Positions 13,928 to 24,208 of a stretch of 32,000 nucleotides of DNA are shown here, piece after piece. The stretch is from contig CAZHYN010000002.1 of NCBI GenBank assembly GCA_964536865.1, positions 97,772 to 129,771 of the forward strand, written 5' to 3'. The position numbers and the translations under genes are program-made. Origin of the DNA: an uncultured Planctomycetia bacterium (GTDB taxonomy: Bacteria > Omnitrophota > Gorgyraeia > Duberdicusellales > 4484-171). The notes beneath the pieces were generated by a model. That model made no database searches, was not told where the DNA came from, and saw only the letters and a program-made list of their open reading frames with translations. Within the stretch, counting starts at the first letter, position 1. Each line of letters starts with the position of its first letter.

Positions 13928-14551
13928 ATGAAAGACGAAATGGATATCTTAAAAGAAGTAGGAAACACCGCTGCTGCTCATGGTAGTATTGCTCTCTCAG
14001 AAATCTTAGGGAAAAAAATCAAACTTCATCTTCCTGTTGTAGACATAATTCCTTGCAAGAATATAGGAAAAGCAATGCCTCAGGAAGGAATGAGTATAAC
14101 TCTACAAACTCAACTCTTAAGTGGTTTAGATGGGAAAGTTGTTTTTATTTTGGAGGAAAAGCAAGCCTACAAACTTATCGATATATGCTATACAGGGGGA
14201 GAGATCAAAAAAACTGGAATATTTACGGAAATGGGAATGAGTCTAATAAAAGAAGTAGGAAATGTAGTTATTGCTAGTTACATAAGTGCTTTAGGGTTCT
14301 TTCTAAGAAAATTAATTGTTCCCTCTCTACCTATACTTATAAATGCTCCACTCCAAGAGATTATAAAACTTGTAGTTGCCGGTTACGGGGAACATGACTA
14401 CGTATTGGTAGTAGAGAGTATCTTTGAAGAGTCAGAAACTAAAATAAAAGGGACTTTCTGGCTCCTTCTTGCTCCTGATTCTGTAAAGCAGATAAAGGAA
14501 GCTTGTAAGAAGCTGTTAGAAGAAGTAGGTAAAAATGATGGAGGAAACTAG
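13928..14551 (+). CDS. cheC: CheC-family CheY-P phosphatase with both active sites intact
   Basis: 207 aa. Two complete [DS]-x3-E-x2-N-x22-P motifs are present: D6-E10-N13-P36 (DILKEVGN...HLP) and SLIKEVGN followed by 22 residues and then P. Confidence 0.85.
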   Translation: MKDEMDILKEVGNTAAAHGSIALSEILGKKIKLHLPVVDIIPCKNIGKAMPQEGMSITLQTQLLSGLDGKVVFILEEKQAYKLIDICYTGGEIKKTGIFTEMGMSLIKEVGNVVIASYISALGFFLRKLIVPSLPILINAPLQEIIKLVVAGYGEHDYVLVVESIFEESETKIKGTFWLLLAPDSVKQIKEACKKLLEEVGKNDGGN

Positions 14552-15467
14552 TAACATCTTAATCTTTACTCCGGATTCCGAACTAAAGGAGTATATCCAA
14601 AAACTTATCAAAGGAGAAGGTTATGAGGTGGATGAAGTCAATCAATTAGAGATGCTTCAGGAGAAGCTATCTCAAGAGAAAGTGGGACTTCTTCTCATTG
14701 ATTCCATGGGAAGCAGTACCATAGATATATGTAAAAAAGTAAGATCTGATTTTACGTTACGCCATATTCCTATAATTGTAATAGTGGAAAAGGAAAGTAC
14801 TATAGAAAAGATAAAAGTTATTTATGCGGGAGCTGACGACTATGTAGAAAAACCTATTAATGCAGGAGAGTTGCTTATACGGATAAAAGCAAACCTTTGG
14901 CGAGCTAACCGTGACTTAGATGCCAATCCTTTAACCAAACTTCCTGGTAATGTTTCTATATTTAGGGAGTTAGAAAAGAGACTAAGAAACAAAGAATTTT
15001 TCTGTGTAGGATATGCGGATTTAGATAAGTTTAAAGAATACAACGACTACTATGGATTTGAGTGGGGAGACAAAGTAATAAAACATACAGCTAAAATTTT
15101 AACTAATGCTCTAAAAGAAGCAGGTTCACCCAACGATTTTCTTGGACATATAGGAGGTGACGATTTCATCTTTATTACCGGCTGGGAAAGTATTAATAAT
15201 GTATGCGAAAATATCATAGAGAACTTCGATAAAACTATTCCTTCCTTCTATAAAGAGGAAGATTTAAAAAAGAGATATATTATTGTAAAAAACCGTTTAG
15301 GGAAAGTAACTTCTGTCCCTATACTCACAATCTCCATTGGAGTAGCTACTAATGAAAAGAGATCTTTAGCTCACGTGGGTCAAATAATTCAAATAGCTAC
15401 GGAATTAAAAACCTACGCTAAAACTTTTTCTAAGAGCTTGTATATAATCGATCGTCGAAGAGGTTAA
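14535..15467 (+). CDS. Response-regulator receiver (atypical) fused to a GGDEF-family domain with a GGDDF motif
   Basis: 310 aa. The REC fold has LLLID (phospho-Asp position) and YVEKP (Lys), but FTPD replaces the DD acidic pair and IVIVE replaces the conserved Thr/Ser position. The GGDEF domain has [26 protein letters not shown] and HIGGDDF. SPND sits in place of the RxxD I-site. Overlaps cheC by 17 nt. Confidence 0.85.
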
Positions 15468-17086
15468 CTACCTTCAAACTTAAATTTCTTCATTAACTCT
15501 TCCACTGACTTCGCTAGTTCACTTAGCTGCTGTGCTGAACTGACCATCTCTTCCATAGAGGTAGTCTGCTCCTGGATAGAAGCACTAGCTTCTTCTACTC
15601 CTGCAGATGTCCCTTCAATGATAGAGGCTACCTCCTCTACTGCCTTTACTCCTTCTTCAGTTCGAGCAAGCTGCTCAGATATGACTTTTACTATCTGCTG
15701 AGCCATAGTATTGGCTTCATTTACCGAAGAAATCACTTCCTTTAAAGTATTTCTTACCTCTATTACTACGTTTCTTCCTTCAGTTACTTCTTTGGAACCA
15801 ATCTCTATAGAAGAAATCGCTTTACCTATATCTTCCTGAATACTCTTTATCAAACCACCAATACGGCTAGCAGCTTGAGCAGAATTTTCTGCTAACTTTC
15901 TTATCTCATCAGCAACTACACCAAAACCTCTTCCTGCTTCTCCAGCACGTGCTGCTTCAATGGCAGCATTCAAGGATAAAAGATTAGTTTGGTCAGCAAT
16001 ATTAGTAATGGTAACAGTGATCTCTCCAATCTGTTGAGACCTTTCCTCTAAGATACGCATAACCTCCACGTTTTTATTTACCGTATCAAATACTCTATCC
16101 ATTTTTTCTGATAAAGTGGGAATTTTCTCTCCACTTAAATTTACTTGAGAAGCTGCAGAAGCAGAAACATCAGCGGTGTTTTTTGCCTTATCACCAACTT
16201 CTCTTAAGGATACATTAACCTCTCCCATAATCCTAGATACATTTTCCACCTTAACTGTCTGGTCAGTAACGCCCTTGGAGAGTTGAGCCATGGCAGCACT
16301 TATCTGCTGTATAACTTCACTCATCTGATGAGTTATATCTACAAACTGATGAGACGTCTCACTAATCTTTCTCCCCACTCTGCTGATTTCTAAAAGCGTG
16401 CCTTTCCAGAAAGAAACTATCTTATTTAGAATGTTATTCAGTTTCCCTACTTTCTCTATACTTTTCTCTATTTCCTTAGGAAATCTTCCCTCTGCTATCT
16501 CTTCAAAGATAGAAACGAAACGATCAATAGGATGAAAAAGACGAGCAGAGAGGAATTTTACTAAAAAGAAAACTAACACCACTCCTGCCAAGAGAGGAAT
16601 CACAATAGTAGTTGCTACCTTAGAAACTGCTTTTGTTACTATCTTAGAATTTTTGACTAAGGAGAGGAATCCCAATAGCTTACCTTCTTCGTCCTTTATA
16701 GGATGAAGAACACCAATCACTCTGTAGCCTAAGAGTTTCTCTATCCTCTCCTTATCTAGTTTGTTAATATCTATACTCTTATCTAACAATTTTGGGCTGC
16801 TACTAATTTCCACTCTTCCTTTCCTATCAGTAACAGCAACTACAAAATTCTGTAAAGTTTTGCTAAAAACTTTCAGGCTATCCTCTATTCCAGACTTACC
16901 CTCCTTAACCCACCTATTACTTACCGCAGCCTCTAAAACTTTTGCTAAATTCTTTAAAGCTTCTCCTTCTCGACTATAAATAACACTCTTTTGGTAGAAA
17001 AAACTAACTACACCCATAATAAAGAAAAATATGCACAGAACAGTGGTAATCCAAATAGTAATTTTATCCTTCAAAAATTTTGGCAC
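15464..17086 (-). CDS. Methyl-accepting chemotaxis protein (two TM segments, small periplasmic sensor, HAMP, MA domain)
   Basis: 540 aa. Hydrophobic segments lie at ~10-30 and ~160-180. The signalling hairpin is highly conserved: [38 protein letters not shown]. Confidence 0.9.
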
Positions 17087-17221: not shown

Positions 17222-17515
17222 TTAAGCTTCTAAAGGTAGTGTACTTACTTTCTCAAATTCAACTGCTACTTCCCACATCCCTTCCTTTTCCATCACTCTA
17301 CTAACTTTACCTCTAACAAAGAAAGAACCTATAGTGGGAAGAATTTTGAACTCTCCGTAGATAATCGAACCTATCTCCACAGGGCGAGAAAGGTTAATCT
17401 TCATTCCTCCTGCGCTAATATCAACGACCTTCCCTTCTTCTCTTACCCCCGCACAGGAAATAACTGCCTTCTCCTCCTCTACGTACCAACGATTAAATTT
17501 GCGTCTCTCTTCCAT
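17222..17515 (-). CDS. Stand-alone PilZ-domain protein (c-di-GMP binding motifs intact)
   Basis: 97 aa. RKFNR (RxxxR) at residues 5-9 and DISAGG (D-x-S-x-x-G) at residues 32-37, followed by a beta-barrel-like remainder. Confidence 0.85.
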   Translation of the reverse strand: MEERRKFNRWYVEEEKAVISCAGVREEGKVVDISAGGMKINLSRPVEIGSIIYGEFKILPTIGSFFVRGKVSRVMEKEGMWEVAVEFEKVSTLPLEA

Positions 17516-17531: not shown

Positions 17532-18155
17532 CTATTCACCTTCTTTAACTCCTAAAGCCTTAAATAATTTCCTTAAAGATTCTAAATCAGGAAAAAATAA
17601 AAGGCAACCCCCAAAATCCATATCTCTTACTTTTAATTCTGTTCTTATAAAAATGGCTTCATCGCTATGCTGAGCTATATGGATGAAAAAAAAGTCCATT
17701 ATTGCTCCCACCATATCCATAGCTAATGAGGGGGTAGTATACATTATAGTAAAACCAGTCATATCAGAAAGAACATTCATATAAGCTCCTACTAAAATGT
17801 TAACCATTTCTCTCAAAGAGGAAAGGAACATGCCATCGTTAAGGTCTACTTCCTCAGGAGGTTTCCCTAACAGAGTGCTCCCTAGGATCTTACCCTCTTG
17901 AGGTGCTAAAAGAAAGAATACCCTACCAGAGATTTCTCCCTCTACCCCAATATCTAAAACAAAATATAAATCTTCCGGATTACCCAAAACTTTATGGAGA
18001 GACTCTAAAGGTACTAATTTTGTCTCAGGGAGAGTAATCTCTACTTTGCAATTAAGAAGCTCAGCTAAAGCAGTAGCGGATCTACCTGCTCCGATAGTCC
18101 CTACTTCTTTAAGAACATCTAACTGGTTCGAAGAAATTTTTTTAGTTTCATCCAT
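17532..18155 (-). CDS. CheC-family protein; first active site degenerate (N to T), second intact
   Basis: 207 aa. Site 1 reads D13-VLK-E17-VG-T20-x22-P43, with Thr in place of the catalytic Asn. Site 2 reads S-SLR-E-MV-N-x22-P and is intact. Confidence 0.85.
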   Translation of the reverse strand: MDETKKISSNQLDVLKEVGTIGAGRSATALAELLNCKVEITLPETKLVPLESLHKVLGNPEDLYFVLDIGVEGEISGRVFFLLAPQEGKILGSTLLGKPPEEVDLNDGMFLSSLREMVNILVGAYMNVLSDMTGFTIMYTTPSLAMDMVGAIMDFFFIHIAQHSDEAIFIRTELKVRDMDFGGCLLFFPDLESLRKLFKALGVKEGE

Positions 18156-19182
18156 CTTTCAAATATTCTAAAATTTTGTCAGGTATTTTACTTACAGGTA
18201 AAATTTCATCAGCCAATTTTGCCTCTATTACTGCCCTAGGCATCCCATAAACCACACAACTTGCCTCATCCTGAGCAATTATCCTACCTCCTTTTTCTTT
18301 CACCTTCCTTGCTCCTTCTAACCCATCTTTACCCATTCCAGTAAGAATTACCACTACTATCTCACCATCAAATACTTCCGCCAAAGAAGTTAAAGTCACG
18401 TCTATCGCTGGTCTTACATAGTTTACCAATGCTGTCTCATCTAATCTTATGCAATAACCCTCTAGGGCCTTTTCTATCATCATATGATATCCTGAGGGAG
18501 CTACAAATCCTGCTCCTTTTATAAGAAAATCCCCATCTTCGGCTTCCTTTATCTTGATATTTGAATACCACGAAAGTCTCTCAGCAAAACTTCTGGTAAA
18601 TCCTGGGGGCATATGTTGAATAATCAGAAAAGTATAATCACAGTAGGAAGGAAATGTTTGCATTAAATCTAGTATGGCTTTAGGGCCACCAGTAGAAGCG
18701 CCTATTGCCACTATCTTTTTTACTGCTAGTTTCTCTTTATCAACGACTTTCTCTACCGTTAGAGAAAGAAACTTATTTAAATCTACCCTAGCAGTTAACT
18801 TAATCTTGGAGATTATTTCCTCTCTAAAATTATATAAATCTAAGGATACTTCCCCGCTAGGTTTAGGAATGAAGTCCAATGCTCCAAGTTCTAACGCTTT
18901 CATAGTAACTTTTGCCCCTCTCTGGGTATAGGCGGAGAGCATAACTACTCGTGTAGGGAAATTATGCATAAGTTCTTCTAGTACTTTCAACCCACTTATA
19001 TCAGGAAGATTTACATCCAAGGTCACTACATCGGGCTTCAGCTCTGGAATCCTTTGGAGAGCCTCTCTTCCCAACTTAGTAGATCCTACCACTTCTATTT
19101 GAGGCTCACTGGATAAAATATCTCCTATTACTTTCTGCATTAAAATTGAATCTTCTACAATAAAGACTCTTACTTTTCTCAT
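18148..19182 (-). CDS. cheB: Chemotaxis response regulator protein-glutamate methylesterase
   Basis: 344 aa. REC domain (FIVEDS, TLDVNLPD) plus a methylesterase domain with GASTGGP, QHMPPGFT and TGMGKDG. Confidence 0.92.
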   Translation of the reverse strand: MRKVRVFIVEDSILMQKVIGDILSSEPQIEVVGSTKLGREALQRIPELKPDVVTLDVNLPDISGLKVLEELMHNFPTRVVMLSAYTQRGAKVTMKALELGALDFIPKPSGEVSLDLYNFREEIISKIKLTARVDLNKFLSLTVEKVVDKEKLAVKKIVAIGASTGGPKAILDLMQTFPSYCDYTFLIIQHMPPGFTRSFAERLSWYSNIKIKEAEDGDFLIKGAGFVAPSGYHMMIEKALEGYCIRLDETALVNYVRPAIDVTLTSLAEVFDGEIVVVILTGMGKDGLEGARKVKEKGGRIIAQDEASCVVYGMPRAVIEAKLADEILPVSKIPDKILEYLKDG

Positions 19183-19676
19183 ACTTCTTTTTCTCCCTGA
19201 AACATCGTCTTTATTCTAACTTTGCCTGTATCTAAATCAAAGAAAATAGTTCTTCCGTAGCTACCCCCAGTATCCTCTCCTACAATTTTGATCCCATGAG
19301 AAGCCAAAATCTCTCTTGCCTTATCGATATTTTTACCTCCTACATTAAAAGGGCTATCTAAAGGAATAGAACTAAACATATGAGCTCCACCGAAAAGTTT
19401 TGCTACCAGTTGATGAGGTTGAACCCCCCGCTTCTTTAACTCATCAATCATAATGCCCACGGCAGAATCTACATACTTAGCAGGGTTAAACTTAGCTTTC
19501 GCATCAGCGATAGAAGGCAACATAGCATGAGCTAAAGCTCCTATCTTTTTTCTAGGTTCATAGACAGCGATACCAATACAAGATCCTAACCCCCGAGTGA
19601 CGAGTACATCTGGAAAGCTTCCTACTCTTACCTCTGCCATACCTACTTCTATAAGATTACCTTTCCTTGCCTCCAT
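19179..19676 (-). CDS. cheD: Chemoreceptor glutamine deamidase
   Basis: 165 aa. GLGSCIGI (catalytic Cys), HAMLP (His) and typical size. ATGA-type overlap with cheB. Confidence 0.9.
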   Translation of the reverse strand: MEARKGNLIEVGMAEVRVGSFPDVLVTRGLGSCIGIAVYEPRKKIGALAHAMLPSIADAKAKFNPAKYVDSAVGIMIDELKKRGVQPHQLVAKLFGGAHMFSSIPLDSPFNVGGKNIDKAREILASHGIKIVGEDTGGSYGRTIFFDLDTGKVRIKTMFQGEKEV

Positions 19677-19691
19677 GTTGAGAGATTTCTC

Positions 19692-20066
19692 CTATTCTCC
19701 TAACACTCTCCTTATAGCTTCTACAACACGAGATGGCTGAAATGGTTTTACGATAAAGTCCTTAGCTCCTGCCTGAATTGCTTCTACTACTAAAGCGTGC
19801 TGGCCCATAGCAGAAACCATTACAATTTTAGCATTAGGATCAATCCGCATAATCTCCTTTACCGCTCCAATCCCATCGATCTCTTCCATCTTAGGCATAA
19901 CAATATCCATTGTAACTAAATCTGGCTTTAACTCCTTATACTTCTCAATCGCCTCTTTACCATTCTCTGCTTCGCCACAAATTTCAAAACCTTCTTTCTT
20001 TAAGATGTCTCCTAGCATCCTACGCATGAAGAGAGCATCATCAACTATTAAGATTTTTGTCGGCAT
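19692..20066 (-). CDS. cheY: Chemotaxis response regulator CheY (paralogue 1)
   Basis: 124 aa single REC domain. Closely resembles the Thermotoga/Bacillus-type CheY that I recall from memory (ILIVDDALFMR, DPNAKIVMVSAMGQ, AGAKDFIVKPFQPSRV). Confidence 0.9.
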   Translation of the reverse strand: MPTKILIVDDALFMRRMLGDILKKEGFEICGEAENGKEAIEKYKELKPDLVTMDIVMPKMEEIDGIGAVKEIMRIDPNAKIVMVSAMGQHALVVEAIQAGAKDFIVKPFQPSRVVEAIRRVLGE

Positions 20067-20095: not shown

Positions 20096-20941
20096 CTATA
20101 TCTTAACAAATATTTTATCAAGTAGACTTACAGGTTTAAAATAATTCCTTAGAGAAACACCTACACTCTCTACTTTCCCGAGAACTAAGTATCCTCCCTC
20201 CTTTAAGGACTTATGTACCTCTAAGAGAATTCTCTCGCTTTCCTCTAAACTAAAATATATTCTTACATTTCTAAAAAAGACCACATCTATAAACTTTAAG
20301 GGTGGGTCAAATAGTAAGTTGTGTTTTCTAAAAGTAACCACTTCCTTTAAAGTATCTTTAACTTGATAAAGCCCTTTGCCTAAGGGAGTAAAATACTTAT
20401 TTAAAATTAGAGGATCTACATTCCTCAAAGATCTCTCTGAGTAAATACCTTCCCTGGCTTTCTTTAAAGCTTGCTCATCAATATCGGTACCGTATATTTT
20501 TAAAACAAACTTATCGTTTATATTTATATTTTTTAACTTCTCCAAAAAAATAATTGCTAAAGAATAGGGCTCCTCCCCACAAGAACACCCAGATGACCAA
20601 CACCGTATCGTTTTCTCTCTTTGCTCTCTTTTCCTCTCTATTAGAGAGGGGATACAGATATCTCTAAACGTAGCAAAGACTTCGGGATCACGGAAAAGTT
20701 CAGAAACATTTATACTGAGGTTATCAAAAAAAATATCCCATTCTTGAGGTTGTTTTTTTAATATCTGAATATAACCCAATAAATTATCCAAACCTAAATG
20801 GCTAAGTCTTAGCTTCAGTCTGCGGGTAAGAAAGCTTTTTCTATAGGAGGTTAAGTCTATTCCTCGATGTTTCCTTACAAAATTAAAGAAAAGGTCAATC
20901 TCATGGGAAGAAAAAAAATCTTTCTTTTCCACTTCCACCAT
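20096..20941 (-). CDS. cheR: Chemotaxis protein methyltransferase
   Basis: 281 aa. N-terminal helical domain and SAM-binding IRCWSSGCSCGEEPYSLA, DIDEQALKKAREGIY and FRNVRIYF. Confidence 0.9.
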   Translation of the reverse strand: MVEVEKKDFFSSHEIDLFFNFVRKHRGIDLTSYRKSFLTRRLKLRLSHLGLDNLLGYIQILKKQPQEWDIFFDNLSINVSELFRDPEVFATFRDICIPSLIERKREQREKTIRCWSSGCSCGEEPYSLAIIFLEKLKNININDKFVLKIYGTDIDEQALKKAREGIYSERSLRNVDPLILNKYFTPLGKGLYQVKDTLKEVVTFRKHNLLFDPPLKFIDVVFFRNVRIYFSLEESERILLEVHKSLKEGGYLVLGKVESVGVSLRNYFKPVSLLDKIFVKI

Positions 20942-20945
20942 GCTT

Positions 20946-21209
20946 TTAATGTTGGGGAGCCTTTTTAACCTTCTCTATTGCCTTGGTGAGCTCTTTAACT
21001 ACATCAGCTCTAAGCTGAAGTTCAAGTTCAGCTATTTTAGTGTATACTCTCCCTTTATCGGTAACCACATATTTAGAGGGGAGATTATTTAAAGCTAAAG
21101 CCATTATATCCAATGTACACTTTTCACATTTGCATACATCGTTTCTTCTGGAAAGTAAATTTTCCAAAGTATTTTTCACTATATCCTCCATGTAATTATG
21201 GCATTCCAT
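20946..21209 (-). CDS. ComFB-family (late competence development protein ComFB-like) small protein
   Basis: 87 aa. N-Y-x-E-x-x-V start, Cys cluster CKCEKC, then DIMALALNNLPSKYV, matching the ComFB (PF10719-like) core pattern C-x-C-x-x-C-x-x-D-x-x-A-x-A-L-N-x-L-P-x-x-Y as I recall it. Confidence 0.75.
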   Translation of the reverse strand: MECHNYMEDIVKNTLENLLSRRNDVCKCEKCTLDIMALALNNLPSKYVVTDKGRVYTKIAELELQLRADVVKELTKAIEKVKKAPQH

Positions 21210-21233
21210 TATCCACCTCCTTAGAAAATAGTA

Positions 21234-21256
21234 GTATAAAATTAATTATTTTATAC
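21234..21256. promoter_or_regulatory. 23-bp perfect AT-rich palindrome upstream of the comFB-like gene (candidate operator or internal promoter element)
   Basis: GTATAAAAT (21234-21242), TAATT, ATTTTATAC (21248-21256). It lies in the 77-bp cheA to comFB gap, 25 nt upstream of the comFB-like start. Confidence 0.3.
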
Positions 21257-21286
21257 GTCAATAGAAAAATCATTTTTAACTATAAA

Positions 21287-23206
21287 TTACTTTATATTAA
21301 CTACATCCAAGATTAAAGCTATCCGACCGTCACCTAAGATAGTTCCTCCTGCAATCCCTCTTATTCTTTTAACGAAGGAACCCAAAGGTTTTACTACAAT
21401 ATCCTGCTCACCTATCACTTTATCTACAACCAGACCCATACTTTTTGTTCTACCTTCTACTATCACTACCGAGATTTCTTCCTTCTCGTAAGTAGCTAAT
21501 GTCTTCATCCCTAACTCCTTATCTAACCTAAGAATAGGAACAATCTCTTCTCTTACACGCATCACTTCTATATCTTTTATTCTTTTTAGCTCCGCTTCTT
21601 TTACCTTTACTGTCTCTCGGATGTTCATAAGAGGAATAGCATAAATCTGTTCTCCAATAACGACTAACATAGCTTTTATAATAGCTAAAGTTAAAGGTAA
21701 AGTAAGAATAAATTTTGTTCCCTTCCCTCGCTGCGTCTCCAAATCCAATCTTCCTCCCAGAGCATCTAACTTGTTACGTACTACATCTAATCCCACTCCT
21801 CGGCCTGATACATCAGTCACTTTCTCACTGGTAGAGAAACCAGGCATAGTAAGGATATCTAAAATTTGACGATAGTCATTTTTGGAAACCTCTTGAGGAG
21901 AAATTAGTCCTTTTTCTGCTGCAGCAGCTACCACCTTATCTATATCTATCCCCCTCCCATCGTCACTAATCTCTATTATAATATGACCCTTCTCTCGGGA
22001 TACTTTGATAAGTATCTTACCACGGGGGGGTTTACCTATTTTCCTTCTCTCTTGAGGAGTCTCTATTCCATGGTCTATAGCATTTCTAATAAGGTGTACT
22101 AAAGGATCACCTATCTCATCTAAAACTACCCTGTCTAACTCTATCTCACTGCCCACTATGTCTAAATCTACCTCCTTACCTTCTTTCCGAGATAGATCTC
22201 TTACAATCCGAGGGAAATTATCCAGGATATAAGAAACAGGTAAGAGCCTCATCTTCAATGCCTCATCCTGAAGAGAAGAGACCAATCTTTCGATAAGATA
22301 AGTGGTCTCTTCTAAAGCTGTATAATCCTTGCTTATTACAGTCTGAGTAAGTCTACTTTTAGTAATAGCTAACTCCCCCATCAGATTCATAATCTTATCT
22401 AATCGCTCTACCGGTATCCGCATACTCTGAATCTTCTTAATATAAGGGGTAGTTTTTCCTTTTTTTCTTTCTACTTTCTCAGCAGAAGAAGTGAATTTAG
22501 AAACTCTAATCTCCTTAACTTCTAAAATCTTAGAAACTTCTTCTTTGATTTTTTCTGGCGGTTCCTTAGTAGCCAAAAAGAAATGAAATGAATTTCCAAA
22601 TGTACCGGCTTTCAACTTATCCTCAGAAGGGATAACCTGGATTATTTGACCTAACATTCTCACTCTCTTAAGAATAAGAAAGGCCCTTGCCCCTTTAAGA
22701 AGACAGTCATCTTGCAGGGTTACTTCCACTTTTAAGAGTTCCTTATTCTCCTTCCTTAACTTTTTAATATACTCCTCATCTATGTGTGTTGGATATTCCT
22801 GAAGAACTTGAGGATATTCTTTTCTCTCTTCTTTAGAGACTAAACTACTTAACCTTACTAAATAGGAAGGAATATCTACAGATATAGGTTTCTCTTCTCT
22901 TAACTCCTCTACAACAGTAGTAAAGGCATCGATACTCTCAAAAACAACATCCATTATCTCAGGCGTCAGTGTTGATTTACCAGACCGGAAATTATCAAAA
23001 GTGTCCTCTAAATGATGAGCAAACTCTGCCAACTCTTTATATCCCATAGTTGCTGCCATCCCTTTAAGGGTATGCATATGTCGGAATATCTCATTTATGG
23101 ATTGTTCATCATGAGGATTCTTTTCTAAATTAACTAAAGCTTTATTTATCTCCTTCAGATACTCTTGGGACTCACTGAAGAATAGCTCACGATAATTCTT
23201 TTCCAT
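21287..23206 (-). CDS. cheA: Chemotaxis histidine kinase CheA
   Basis: 639 aa. Hpt domain with HMHTLKGMAATMG, N-box HLIRNAIDHGIE, G1 DDGRGID, G2 GRGVGLDVV, and a C-terminal CheW-like P5 domain (GLVVDKVIGEQDIVVKPL). Confidence 0.95.
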   Translation of the reverse strand: MEKNYRELFFSESQEYLKEINKALVNLEKNPHDEQSINEIFRHMHTLKGMAATMGYKELAEFAHHLEDTFDNFRSGKSTLTPEIMDVVFESIDAFTTVVEELREEKPISVDIPSYLVRLSSLVSKEERKEYPQVLQEYPTHIDEEYIKKLRKENKELLKVEVTLQDDCLLKGARAFLILKRVRMLGQIIQVIPSEDKLKAGTFGNSFHFFLATKEPPEKIKEEVSKILEVKEIRVSKFTSSAEKVERKKGKTTPYIKKIQSMRIPVERLDKIMNLMGELAITKSRLTQTVISKDYTALEETTYLIERLVSSLQDEALKMRLLPVSYILDNFPRIVRDLSRKEGKEVDLDIVGSEIELDRVVLDEIGDPLVHLIRNAIDHGIETPQERRKIGKPPRGKILIKVSREKGHIIIEISDDGRGIDIDKVVAAAAEKGLISPQEVSKNDYRQILDILTMPGFSTSEKVTDVSGRGVGLDVVRNKLDALGGRLDLETQRGKGTKFILTLPLTLAIIKAMLVVIGEQIYAIPLMNIRETVKVKEAELKRIKDIEVMRVREEIVPILRLDKELGMKTLATYEKEEISVVIVEGRTKSMGLVVDKVIGEQDIVVKPLGSFVKRIRGIAGGTILGDGRIALILDVVNIK

Positions 23207-23212
23207 AATGAT

Positions 23213-23818
23213 TTAAATTTCGGTAGCTTTAAGAAGAATCTCCAAGCCCTTAGGATTGGGTAGGAGAAAAAAATGTCCGGTAACTTTTGTTGTGGCTTCA
23301 CTAAACTCTGATTTTATAAGTAAAGCGTAAGGAGAAATATTACTCAATTCTATAAGAATGTAATCTACCATTGCTCCTGCCATATCCTCAATAACTTCAG
23401 GGACGGTGGGAACAAGTCCCCACTTTACAAACACGGAGAGTGCTCCCAGATAAGCGTTGGCTAGAATCACTCCTATTTCTTTAAGAGCTGAACGTTCCAT
23501 ATCAGTTATTACTCCTCCGTTAGATGACTTTCTATTAGTTAACAGAGAAGCTAATCCTAACGCATCTTTATGGGAAAAGATAAGAAGAATCACACTGGGA
23601 AAGTCACCTAGAATTCTTACAATTAACCCTACAACTAATTTCTCTTCTCCTACAATTTGAGGAACTTTCTCCACAGGAAGAAAATAAATTTCGGGGACAT
23701 TTATTTCTATTTTCTTATTGGTAAGTTGAGATAGAGCAGTAGCAGCGTTACCTGCACAGATATTCCCAATTTCTCTTAGAGCATCTTTTTGAAACTCATC
23801 GAACTTTATCTCTTCCAT
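23213..23818 (-). CDS. CheC/CheX-family protein; first active site intact, second degenerate (N to V)
   Basis: 201 aa. Site 1 reads D12-ALR-E16-IG-N19-x22-P42 and is intact. Site 2 reads S-ALK-E-IG-V-x22-P, with Val in place of the catalytic Asn. Confidence 0.85.
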   Translation of the reverse strand: MEEIKFDEFQKDALREIGNICAGNAATALSQLTNKKIEINVPEIYFLPVEKVPQIVGEEKLVVGLIVRILGDFPSVILLIFSHKDALGLASLLTNRKSSNGGVITDMERSALKEIGVILANAYLGALSVFVKWGLVPTVPEVIEDMAGAMVDYILIELSNISPYALLIKSEFSEATTKVTGHFFLLPNPKGLEILLKATEI

Positions 23819-24208
23819 CTACTTATTTTCCGAAGAGATGGCTTTCTTTATTACCTCCAAGAGCTTCTCTGCAGTAAAGGGTTTAATCACGAAGTCCTTA
23901 GCCCCATAAGCTAAAGCCTCCTGAACCAATCTCCTATCCCCCAAAGCGGAAATAACCACAATTTTTGCCTCAGGATCAAAGGATATAATTTCCCTTACTG
24001 CACTAATCCCATCCATTTCTTCCATCATAGGCATTACAATATCCAAAGTAACTAAATCTGGATTGAGCTCCTTATACTTCTGCACTCCCTCTAAGGCGTT
24101 GGATGCTTCTCCACAGATCTCAAAACCTGCCTTTACTAGAATATCCCTTATAAGATTTCTCATGAATAAAGCATCATCAACTATTAATACACGTTTCCTC
24201 TCCATCAT
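23819..24208 (-). CDS. cheY: Chemotaxis response regulator CheY (paralogue 2)
   Basis: 129 aa single REC domain (LIVDDALFMR, TLDIVMP, KIVVISALG, AKDFVIKPF). Its stop abuts the start of the CheC-like gene. Confidence 0.9.
   Translation of the reverse strand: MMERKRVLIVDDALFMRNLIRDILVKAGFEICGEASNALEGVQKYKELNPDLVTLDIVMPMMEEMDGISAVREIISFDPEAKIVVISALGDRRLVQEALAYGAKDFVIKPFTAEKLLEVIKKAISSENK

Follow-up and report, generated by a model that had tools for sequence, protein, structure and literature searches.

A ComFB-Family Protein as a Candidate Cyclic-Dinucleotide-Responsive Partner of CheR in a Chemosensory Operon of Omnitrophota

Introduction

ComFB has recently been recognised as a third widespread family of c-di-GMP receptors, and in Bacillus subtilis it slows flagellar motility. 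We know of no ComFB with an established direct protein target. MapZ, a c-di-GMP receptor of Pseudomonas aeruginosa, works in the flagellar pathway, and to our knowledge its gene is not adjacent to cheR1. Pathways of the Wsp type have a receiver-GGDEF protein as their output, e.g., WspR in Pseudomonas.

[quoted passage not shown] The zinc site of B. subtilis ComFB (BsComFB) consists of Cys25, Cys27, and Cys30 together with Cys88. According to a preprint, B. subtilis ComFB lowers swimming speed and tumbling frequency. A survey of gene neighbourhoods found comFB in competence, flagellar, pilus, and hfq contexts, among them a type IV pilus context in Thermoanaerobacterales, and contained no che operon (PMC12448109). 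The same study noted ComFB-CheR fusions in Omnitrophota, e.g., UniProt A0A1G1PT98, in one sentence and without analysis (Samir et al. 2025; PMC12448109). Within the literature that we searched, ComFB and CheR are brought together only by Samir et al. 2025 and its preprint. A c-di-GMP receptor of another family is known to act on CheR: in P. aeruginosa the PilZ protein MapZ, together with c-di-GMP, binds CheR1 and suppresses methylation of several methyl-accepting chemoreceptors (MCPs) (PMC6370697).

Here we describe a stretch of 32,000 nucleotides from an uncultured member of the Omnitrophota, referred to as the window, in which a comFB gene lies inside a che operon.

Results

The comFB gene (20946..21209, minus strand) starts with ATG, 6 nt downstream of a strong Shine-Dalgarno sequence, AAGGAGGTG, and encodes a stand-alone protein of 87 aa. 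This protein matches the Pfam ComFB profile (PF10719) over its full length, positions 1-83 of 83, with an E value of 1.5e-27 and a score of 95.9 bits, the Pfam cut-off being 25 bits. It has the hallmarks by which it was originally recognised: CKCEKC at residues 26-31, in which C26, C28, and C31 form the CxCxxC motif, and DIMALALNNLPSKYV at residues 34-48. Its C-terminal residue is His87. About 40 comFB-type clusters in Omnitrophota metagenomes have 59-91% identity to the window protein, and therefore the gene is not a chance open reading frame (ORF). All of the named relatives are Candidatus Omnitrophota.

Sequence matches in the PDB were B. subtilis ComFB (4WAI, E 8.9e-6) and CdgR, the c-di-GMP receptor of Synechocystis (8HJA, E 0.041). 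When an AlphaFold model built on 28 relatives (pLDDT 82) was compared with the PDB with Foldseek, the best five matches were all chains of these two entries (TM 0.58-0.71, with 0.71 for 4WAI and 0.61 for 8HJA; probability 0.96-1.0), and the sixth match had a probability of just 0.41. The profile match and the modelled fold agree with the original prediction that the window protein is a true member of the ComFB family. It scored 42.4 bits against the NCBIfam equivalog for the late competence ComFB of Bacillus (NF052654), for which the cut-off is 120, and its gene is flanked by cheA and cheR, not by comFA or comFC. The predicted fold is that of ComFB and not the PilZ fold of MapZ, and a Pfam search of the 87 residues gave no match to the CheW-like domain PF01584.

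On the minus strand, from 24208 down to 15464, the gene order according to Pfam is cheY-cheC-cheA-comFB-cheR-cheY-cheD-cheB-cheC-PilZ-MCP. The operon starts with cheY (23819-24208), followed by cheC (23213-23818) and cheA (21287-23206), whose product has Hpt (P1), P2, H-kinase_dim, HATPase_c, and CheW-like (P5) domains. As had been claimed, comFB is the sole gene between cheA and cheR, with no other ORF of at least 50 aa on that strand. The spacer between cheA and comFB (21210..21286, minus strand) is 77 nt long and contains the Shine-Dalgarno sequence. A consensus scan of this spacer gave a sigma-70-like match, TTGACG-17-TATACT at 21261-21233 (10/12), but the cheA-comFB region has no more such matches than shuffled sequence does, and an internal promoter in the gap is therefore only a possibility.

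The cheR gene (20096-20941, minus strand) encodes a 281-aa protein-glutamate methyltransferase (Pfam CheR_N and CheR, E 5.5e-52). Its start codon lies 4 nt beyond the comFB stop codon (TAA AAGC ATG), and at the junction no separate ribosome-binding site for cheR is obvious. These two features suggest that translation of comFB and cheR is coupled. The minus-strand genes downstream of cheR are cheY (19692-20066), cheD (19179-19676), cheB (18148-19182), and cheC (17532-18155), and the order cheR-cheY-cheD is kept in related loci. They are followed by a gene for a single-domain PilZ protein of 97 aa (17222..17515, minus strand; Pfam PilZ E 7e-12), in the translation of which the RxxxR and DxSxxG motifs read RKFNR and DISAGG. 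This protein is a second candidate c-di-GMP receptor and could itself be the c-di-GMP adaptor; no sequence-level PDB match marked it as a relative of MapZ. The last gene encodes a 540-aa MCP (15464..17086, minus strand; Pfam MCPsignal E 2.3e-40), which is presumed to be the substrate of CheR. Inspection of its translation by eye revealed no obvious C-terminal CheR-tethering pentapeptide.

Two genes on the plus strand are convergent with the operon. One encodes a CheC-like protein (13928-14551), and the other, whose start overlaps the end of the first, encodes a receiver-GGDEF protein with the motif GGDDF (14535-15467). The Pfam GGDEF match covers just profile positions 5-109 of 161, and we regard the protein as a possible c-di-GMP-producing output. 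In three related loci (L005, L009, and L010) homologues of the two genes are found a few kb past comFB-cheR, and in a fourth (L085) they come directly after cheR.

The assembly that contains the window is 1.29 Mb in 22 contigs and is 94% complete. It encodes one CheA, two MCPs, and two CheRs, one adjoining comFB and the other fused to ComFB. A search of the genome found no FliG, but there were 7 strong matches to PilB/PilT-type ATPases (five PilB/GspE-type and two PilT-type), a pilin/PilC cluster, 8 GGDEF matches, 17 PilZ matches, and one match to a diadenylate cyclase (DAC). The set of GGDEF and PilZ proteins is large for a genome of this size. The lack of FliG alongside type IV pilus genes and so many GGDEF and PilZ proteins indicates that the chemosensory pathway is probably not flagellar. 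Thus, the chemotaxis operon of the original prediction is probably not a flagellar one. FliG was detected in 12 of 401 sampled Omnitrophota genomes and in 1 of the 23 genomes that have comFB and cheR as separate, adjacent genes (split pairs). It is plausible, although speculative, that the output of the pathway is type IV pili or the adjacent receiver-GGDEF protein.

The operon has no cheW, and comFB occupies the slot where some che operons have it, an arrangement emphasised in the original prediction. Such a location might be expected if ComFB stood in for CheW as the protein that couples receptors to CheA. The similarity is positional only, however, because this genome has its cheW gene at another site and relatives have theirs at the end of the operon. 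CheW-domain matches in the genome were limited to the P5 domain of CheA and a stand-alone CheW of 178 aa on contig 1 (PF01584, E 1e-41), remote from other che genes, and a related operon (L003) has both comFB and cheW. In addition, ComFB has a small helical fold that is unrelated to the CheW beta-barrel. Replacement of CheW by ComFB is effectively refuted, and we rejected it.

The frequency of the association between ComFB and che genes was evaluated in two surveys. The first covered 80 loci of the nearest ComFB relatives on contigs from one genome per species. In all 13 Omnitrophota-type loci cheR was located 7-194 nt downstream of comFB on the same strand and was followed by cheY and then, in all except one short locus, by cheD. 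No CheA, CheR, CheD, CheC, or MCP match was found within 8 kb in the other 67 loci, which came from Actinomycetota, Clostridia, FCPU426, Firestonebacteria, and others. Non-Omnitrophota loci that were spot-checked had mixed neighbours, such as pilX-comFB-pilM in Caldanaerobacter, which agrees with the type IV pilus context published for Thermoanaerobacterales.

The second survey covered the 401 sampled Omnitrophota genomes, of which 38 had ComFB (69 matches) and 137 had CheR above the cut-off. ComFB was linked to CheR in 51 of the 69 matches: 23 were stand-alone with cheR as the next gene downstream, 26 were the N-terminal domain of a ComFB-CheR fusion, and 2 were directly upstream of such a fusion. 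The remaining 18 had no CheR link, 11 of them in one family, f12. The expectation that homologues would be enriched beside che genes was thus borne out in Omnitrophota (13/13 loci; 51/69 linked to CheR) but failed in other phyla (0/67 loci).

Several loci depart from the simple pair. The two stand-alone comFB genes directly upstream of a fusion are at G284:C14:43003-44361 and G298:C136:4941-6297, and two fusion genes lie about 1-4 kb apart on one contig at G236:C6:546578-548744 and G390:C42:3765-8817. Three che-type stand-alone comFB genes have no intact cheR downstream (L094 on G359:C184, L101 on G213:C89, and L104 on G171:C60). One of these loci retains just a short CheR remnant, in another cheY comes next, and the third has an in-frame TAA; they look like decayed versions of the comFB-cheR pair. 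CheR-like matches also occur within giant ORFs of other Omnitrophota, of 54392 aa (G236:C6:374787-375395), 52518 aa (G242:C2:134019-134504), and 38661 aa (G189:C8:41745-42290).

Family f12 has a second ComFB subtype that does not have the CxCxxC cysteines and keeps D34, N41, and R42 (numbered as in the window protein). It is encoded at L108 1462-1749 and L109 1462-1755 and also in L110 and L111. A gene for a GGDEF-EAL protein is directly upstream of it and an AddB-like gene is downstream, and the subtype is present in all 11 sampled f12 genomes. Through it ComFB has a connection with c-di-GMP turnover enzymes that does not involve the che operon.

The fused architecture, of about 360 aa, is represented in public data by at least 120 clusters at 90% identity, and every cluster with a source name is from Omnitrophota/Omnitrophica. 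In fusions 223-235 nt separate the end of the ComFB match from the beginning of the CheR match, and in split pairs 235-337 nt do so. The two forms are therefore joined or broken at one and the same linker, and the split pair differs from the fusion by little beyond its stop and start codons and the short spacer between them. Both forms were present in 21 of the sampled genomes, and they are therefore paralogous systems and not alternatives to each other. The genome of the window has both forms: besides the pair it encodes a 357-aa ComFB-CheR_N-CheR fusion on contig 8 (L002 676-1749). This fusion gene is an orphan without che neighbours, flanked by a radical-SAM-like gene on one side and a gene whose product has a signal peptide on the other, and in its ComFB domain Ala replaces the ligand-contact Asp.

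Membership of a che operon was expected to give ComFB a concrete set of partners. The set can be narrowed to CheR, because cheR is the constant downstream neighbour of comFB and CheR is the sole fusion partner that we saw. The upstream gene is not constant: cheA takes this place in the window and in about a dozen loci, while in 16 others the gene directly upstream of comFB-cheR encodes a 712-aa protein with a PilM/FtsA/MreB-like actin fold (L003 5861-7999; also L004, L007, L008, L029, L040, L044, L086, L089-L091, L093, L096-L098, and L102). The 712-aa gene is absent from the genome of the window. Its presence elsewhere hints at a pathway tied to type IV pili or to a cytoskeletal element. CheA is an unlikely partner, since its adjacency to comFB is lost in the 16 loci with the intervening PilM-like gene.

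A maximum likelihood tree was constructed for 74 Omnitrophota CheRs, comprising 54 that are linked to ComFB (31 split and 23 fused) and 20 unlinked single-domain CheRs of about 270-300 aa. In this tree, which is unrooted and came from a quick search, a branch with an SH-aLRT support of 100 parts the 54 linked CheRs from 19 of the 20 unlinked ones, the exception being the long-branch L130. All fused CheRs group together with an SH-aLRT support of 93, and the CheR of the window falls in the ComFB-linked clade. The corresponding tree of ComFB domains, which bears on whether the fused domain descends from the split gene, is based on 91 columns, is poorly resolved, and places the fused domains on a divergent branch; on this tree an AU test rejected a single clade of split plus fused ComFBs (p 0.019), a rejection to be read with caution given that branch.

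The constant adjacency to cheR, the fusion to CheR, the variable upstream neighbour, and the separate CheR clade indicate that CheR, rather than CheA, CheY, or the MCP, is the probable partner of ComFB. Adjacency shows co-expression, not contact; it is from the sequences of pairs and fusions that we infer physical contact between ComFB and CheR. A model of the fusion was confident throughout, including the linker (pLDDT 90.2, pTM 0.75), which fits a fixed arrangement of the two predicted domains. PDB entry 5XLY, the MapZ-CheR1 complex, was among the structural matches of its CheR part.

The same neighbourhoods can be read differently, with ComFB acting on CheA, a CheY, the type IV pilus machinery, or DNA uptake and cheR merely being co-transcribed. 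The window comFB adjoins cheA as well as cheR, the PilM/FtsA-like gene is directly upstream in the 16 related loci, comFB lies between two pil genes in Caldanaerobacter, and the ComFB of Synechocystis controls pilus biogenesis and competence (PMC12448109). Yet the upstream gene changes where cheR stays and is even fused to comFB, and a separate clade of linked CheRs is what would be expected of co-evolving partners. We consider a target other than CheR quite improbable.

Ligand-contact and dimer-interface positions were taken from PMC12448109, and their conservation was counted over 35 split che-operon ComFBs and 120 fused domains. The dimer-interface residues of BsComFB (Asn4, Glu7, Asp33, Asn40, and Tyr46) correspond to N5, E8, D34, N41, and Y47 in the window protein. 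The c-di-GMP contact positions are Asp33, Ala36, Leu37, Asn40, Arg/Lys41, Val47, and Tyr55 in BsComFB, and 6 of these 7 are kept in the window as D34, A37, L38, N41, V48, and Y56. The seventh, Arg/Lys41, corresponds to Asn42, a residue shared by just 3 of the 35 split orthologues, and this substitution could weaken ligand binding. The window protein has no counterpart of Cys88. Its His87, which all 28 aligned relatives share, is likely to take the place of Cys88 as the fourth zinc ligand.

Split and fused proteins are alike at the predicted zinc site. Each of the CxCxxC cysteines is present in 33 of the 35 split ComFBs and in 117, 118, and 118 of the 120 fused domains, and His87 is present in 33 and 116, respectively. 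They differ at the contact positions: D34 is found in 35/35 split but 53/120 fused proteins, N41 in 35/35 but 0/120 (mostly Ser), and Tyr or Phe at position 56 in 32/35 but, among the residues listed, 0/120. Arg or Lys at position 42 is present in 29/35 split and 92/120 fused proteins (47 Lys and 45 Arg). Because the contact positions are kept in the split form and largely lost in the fused form, the stand-alone ComFB of che operons is read as still being a nucleotide receptor, and the fused ComFB has probably changed or lost this ability. A partnership between ComFB and CheR would then not always depend on ligand.

The last point also fits a reading in which ComFB is a ligand-independent, zinc-held dimerisation or targeting module that pairs two CheRs or anchors CheR to the receptor array. 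Fused domains, while devoid of N41 and Y56 and mostly of D34, keep N5, E8, and Y47 at the dimer interface as well as the zinc site (C26 in 117/120 and H87 in 116/120); the window protein has neither Arg nor Lys at position 42; and the operon MCP has no obvious pentapeptide by which CheR might be tethered. It is hard to see without ligand binding why D34 and N41 should be invariant in stand-alone ComFBs and positions 42 and 56 so well conserved, and all ComFBs assayed so far bound c-di-GMP (PMC12448109). A purely structural role is thus unlikely for the stand-alone protein.

Discussion

The explanation that we favour, with a probability of about 0.6, is that ComFB is a cyclic-dinucleotide receptor acting as an accessory subunit dedicated to CheR in a nonflagellar chemosensory pathway of Omnitrophota. 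The window ComFB would be a zinc-stabilised, probably dimeric receptor that is produced together with CheR through coupled translation. It would bind c-di-GMP, or possibly c-di-AMP, a ligand identity that we infer from the conserved contact positions. The ligand-loaded dimer would then bind CheR and alter receptor methylation, so that adaptation, and hence the output of CheA, would be set by the second-messenger level of the cell. By analogy with MapZ and CheR1, the effect on CheR may be inhibition.

The genes convergent with the operon permit a more speculative extension, which we consider doubtful, in which adaptation is a closed second-messenger loop. The chemosensory kinase would drive the adjacent receiver-GGDEF protein to produce c-di-GMP; ComFB, and perhaps the PilZ protein of the operon, would sense the c-di-GMP and retune CheR; and the fused, ligand-blind ComFB-CheR paralogue would give a constitutive baseline. 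If such a loop exists, nonflagellar adaptation, for type IV pili or surface behaviour, would be set by c-di-GMP and not by CheB/CheR kinetics alone.

With ComFB either joined to CheR in one protein or encoded 4 nt ahead of it, these bacteria offer a concrete, testable ComFB target, and the separate CheR clade strengthens the case. The arrangement further suggests that receptor methylation has come under c-di-GMP control at least twice through unrelated receptor folds, PilZ in Pseudomonas and ComFB here. The picture of Omnitrophota that emerges is one of small genomes that are rich in c-di-GMP signalling and have a chemosensory pathway without flagella.

Compared with the ComFB and CdgR proteins of known structure (4WAI and 8HJA), the window protein is similar in its full-length Pfam match, predicted fold, CxCxxC motif, dimer residues, and 6 of 7 contact positions; like them it is small and stand-alone and belongs to a family linked to motility. 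It differs in that its gene is in a che operon next to cheR. Unlike B. subtilis ComFB, to which it is not orthologous, it probably uses His87 for Cys88 and has Asn for Arg/Lys41. The ComFB-CheR fusions of Omnitrophota have the same modules in the same order, with the same linker and in the same phylum, whereas the window has two genes in a complete che operon, and the stand-alone form keeps contact residues that fused domains have mostly lost. With MapZ and CheR1 the likeness is confined to the proposed mechanism, a small c-di-GMP receptor acting on CheR, since MapZ has a PilZ fold and the window protein a predicted ComFB fold. The locus resembles Wsp systems in combining a che-like operon with a receiver-GGDEF protein in an organism whose pathway is probably nonflagellar, but its GGDEF motif is GGDDF, CheC and CheD are present, and ComFB and PilZ are encoded inside the operon. 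Given that fusions were already mentioned by Samir et al. 2025, the link between ComFB and CheR is not wholly new. What we believe to be new is the conserved stand-alone comFB-cheR pair in che operons, its occurrence in genomes that also encode the fusion, the separate clade formed by ComFB-linked CheRs, the difference in ligand-site conservation between split and fused forms, and the flagellum-less setting.
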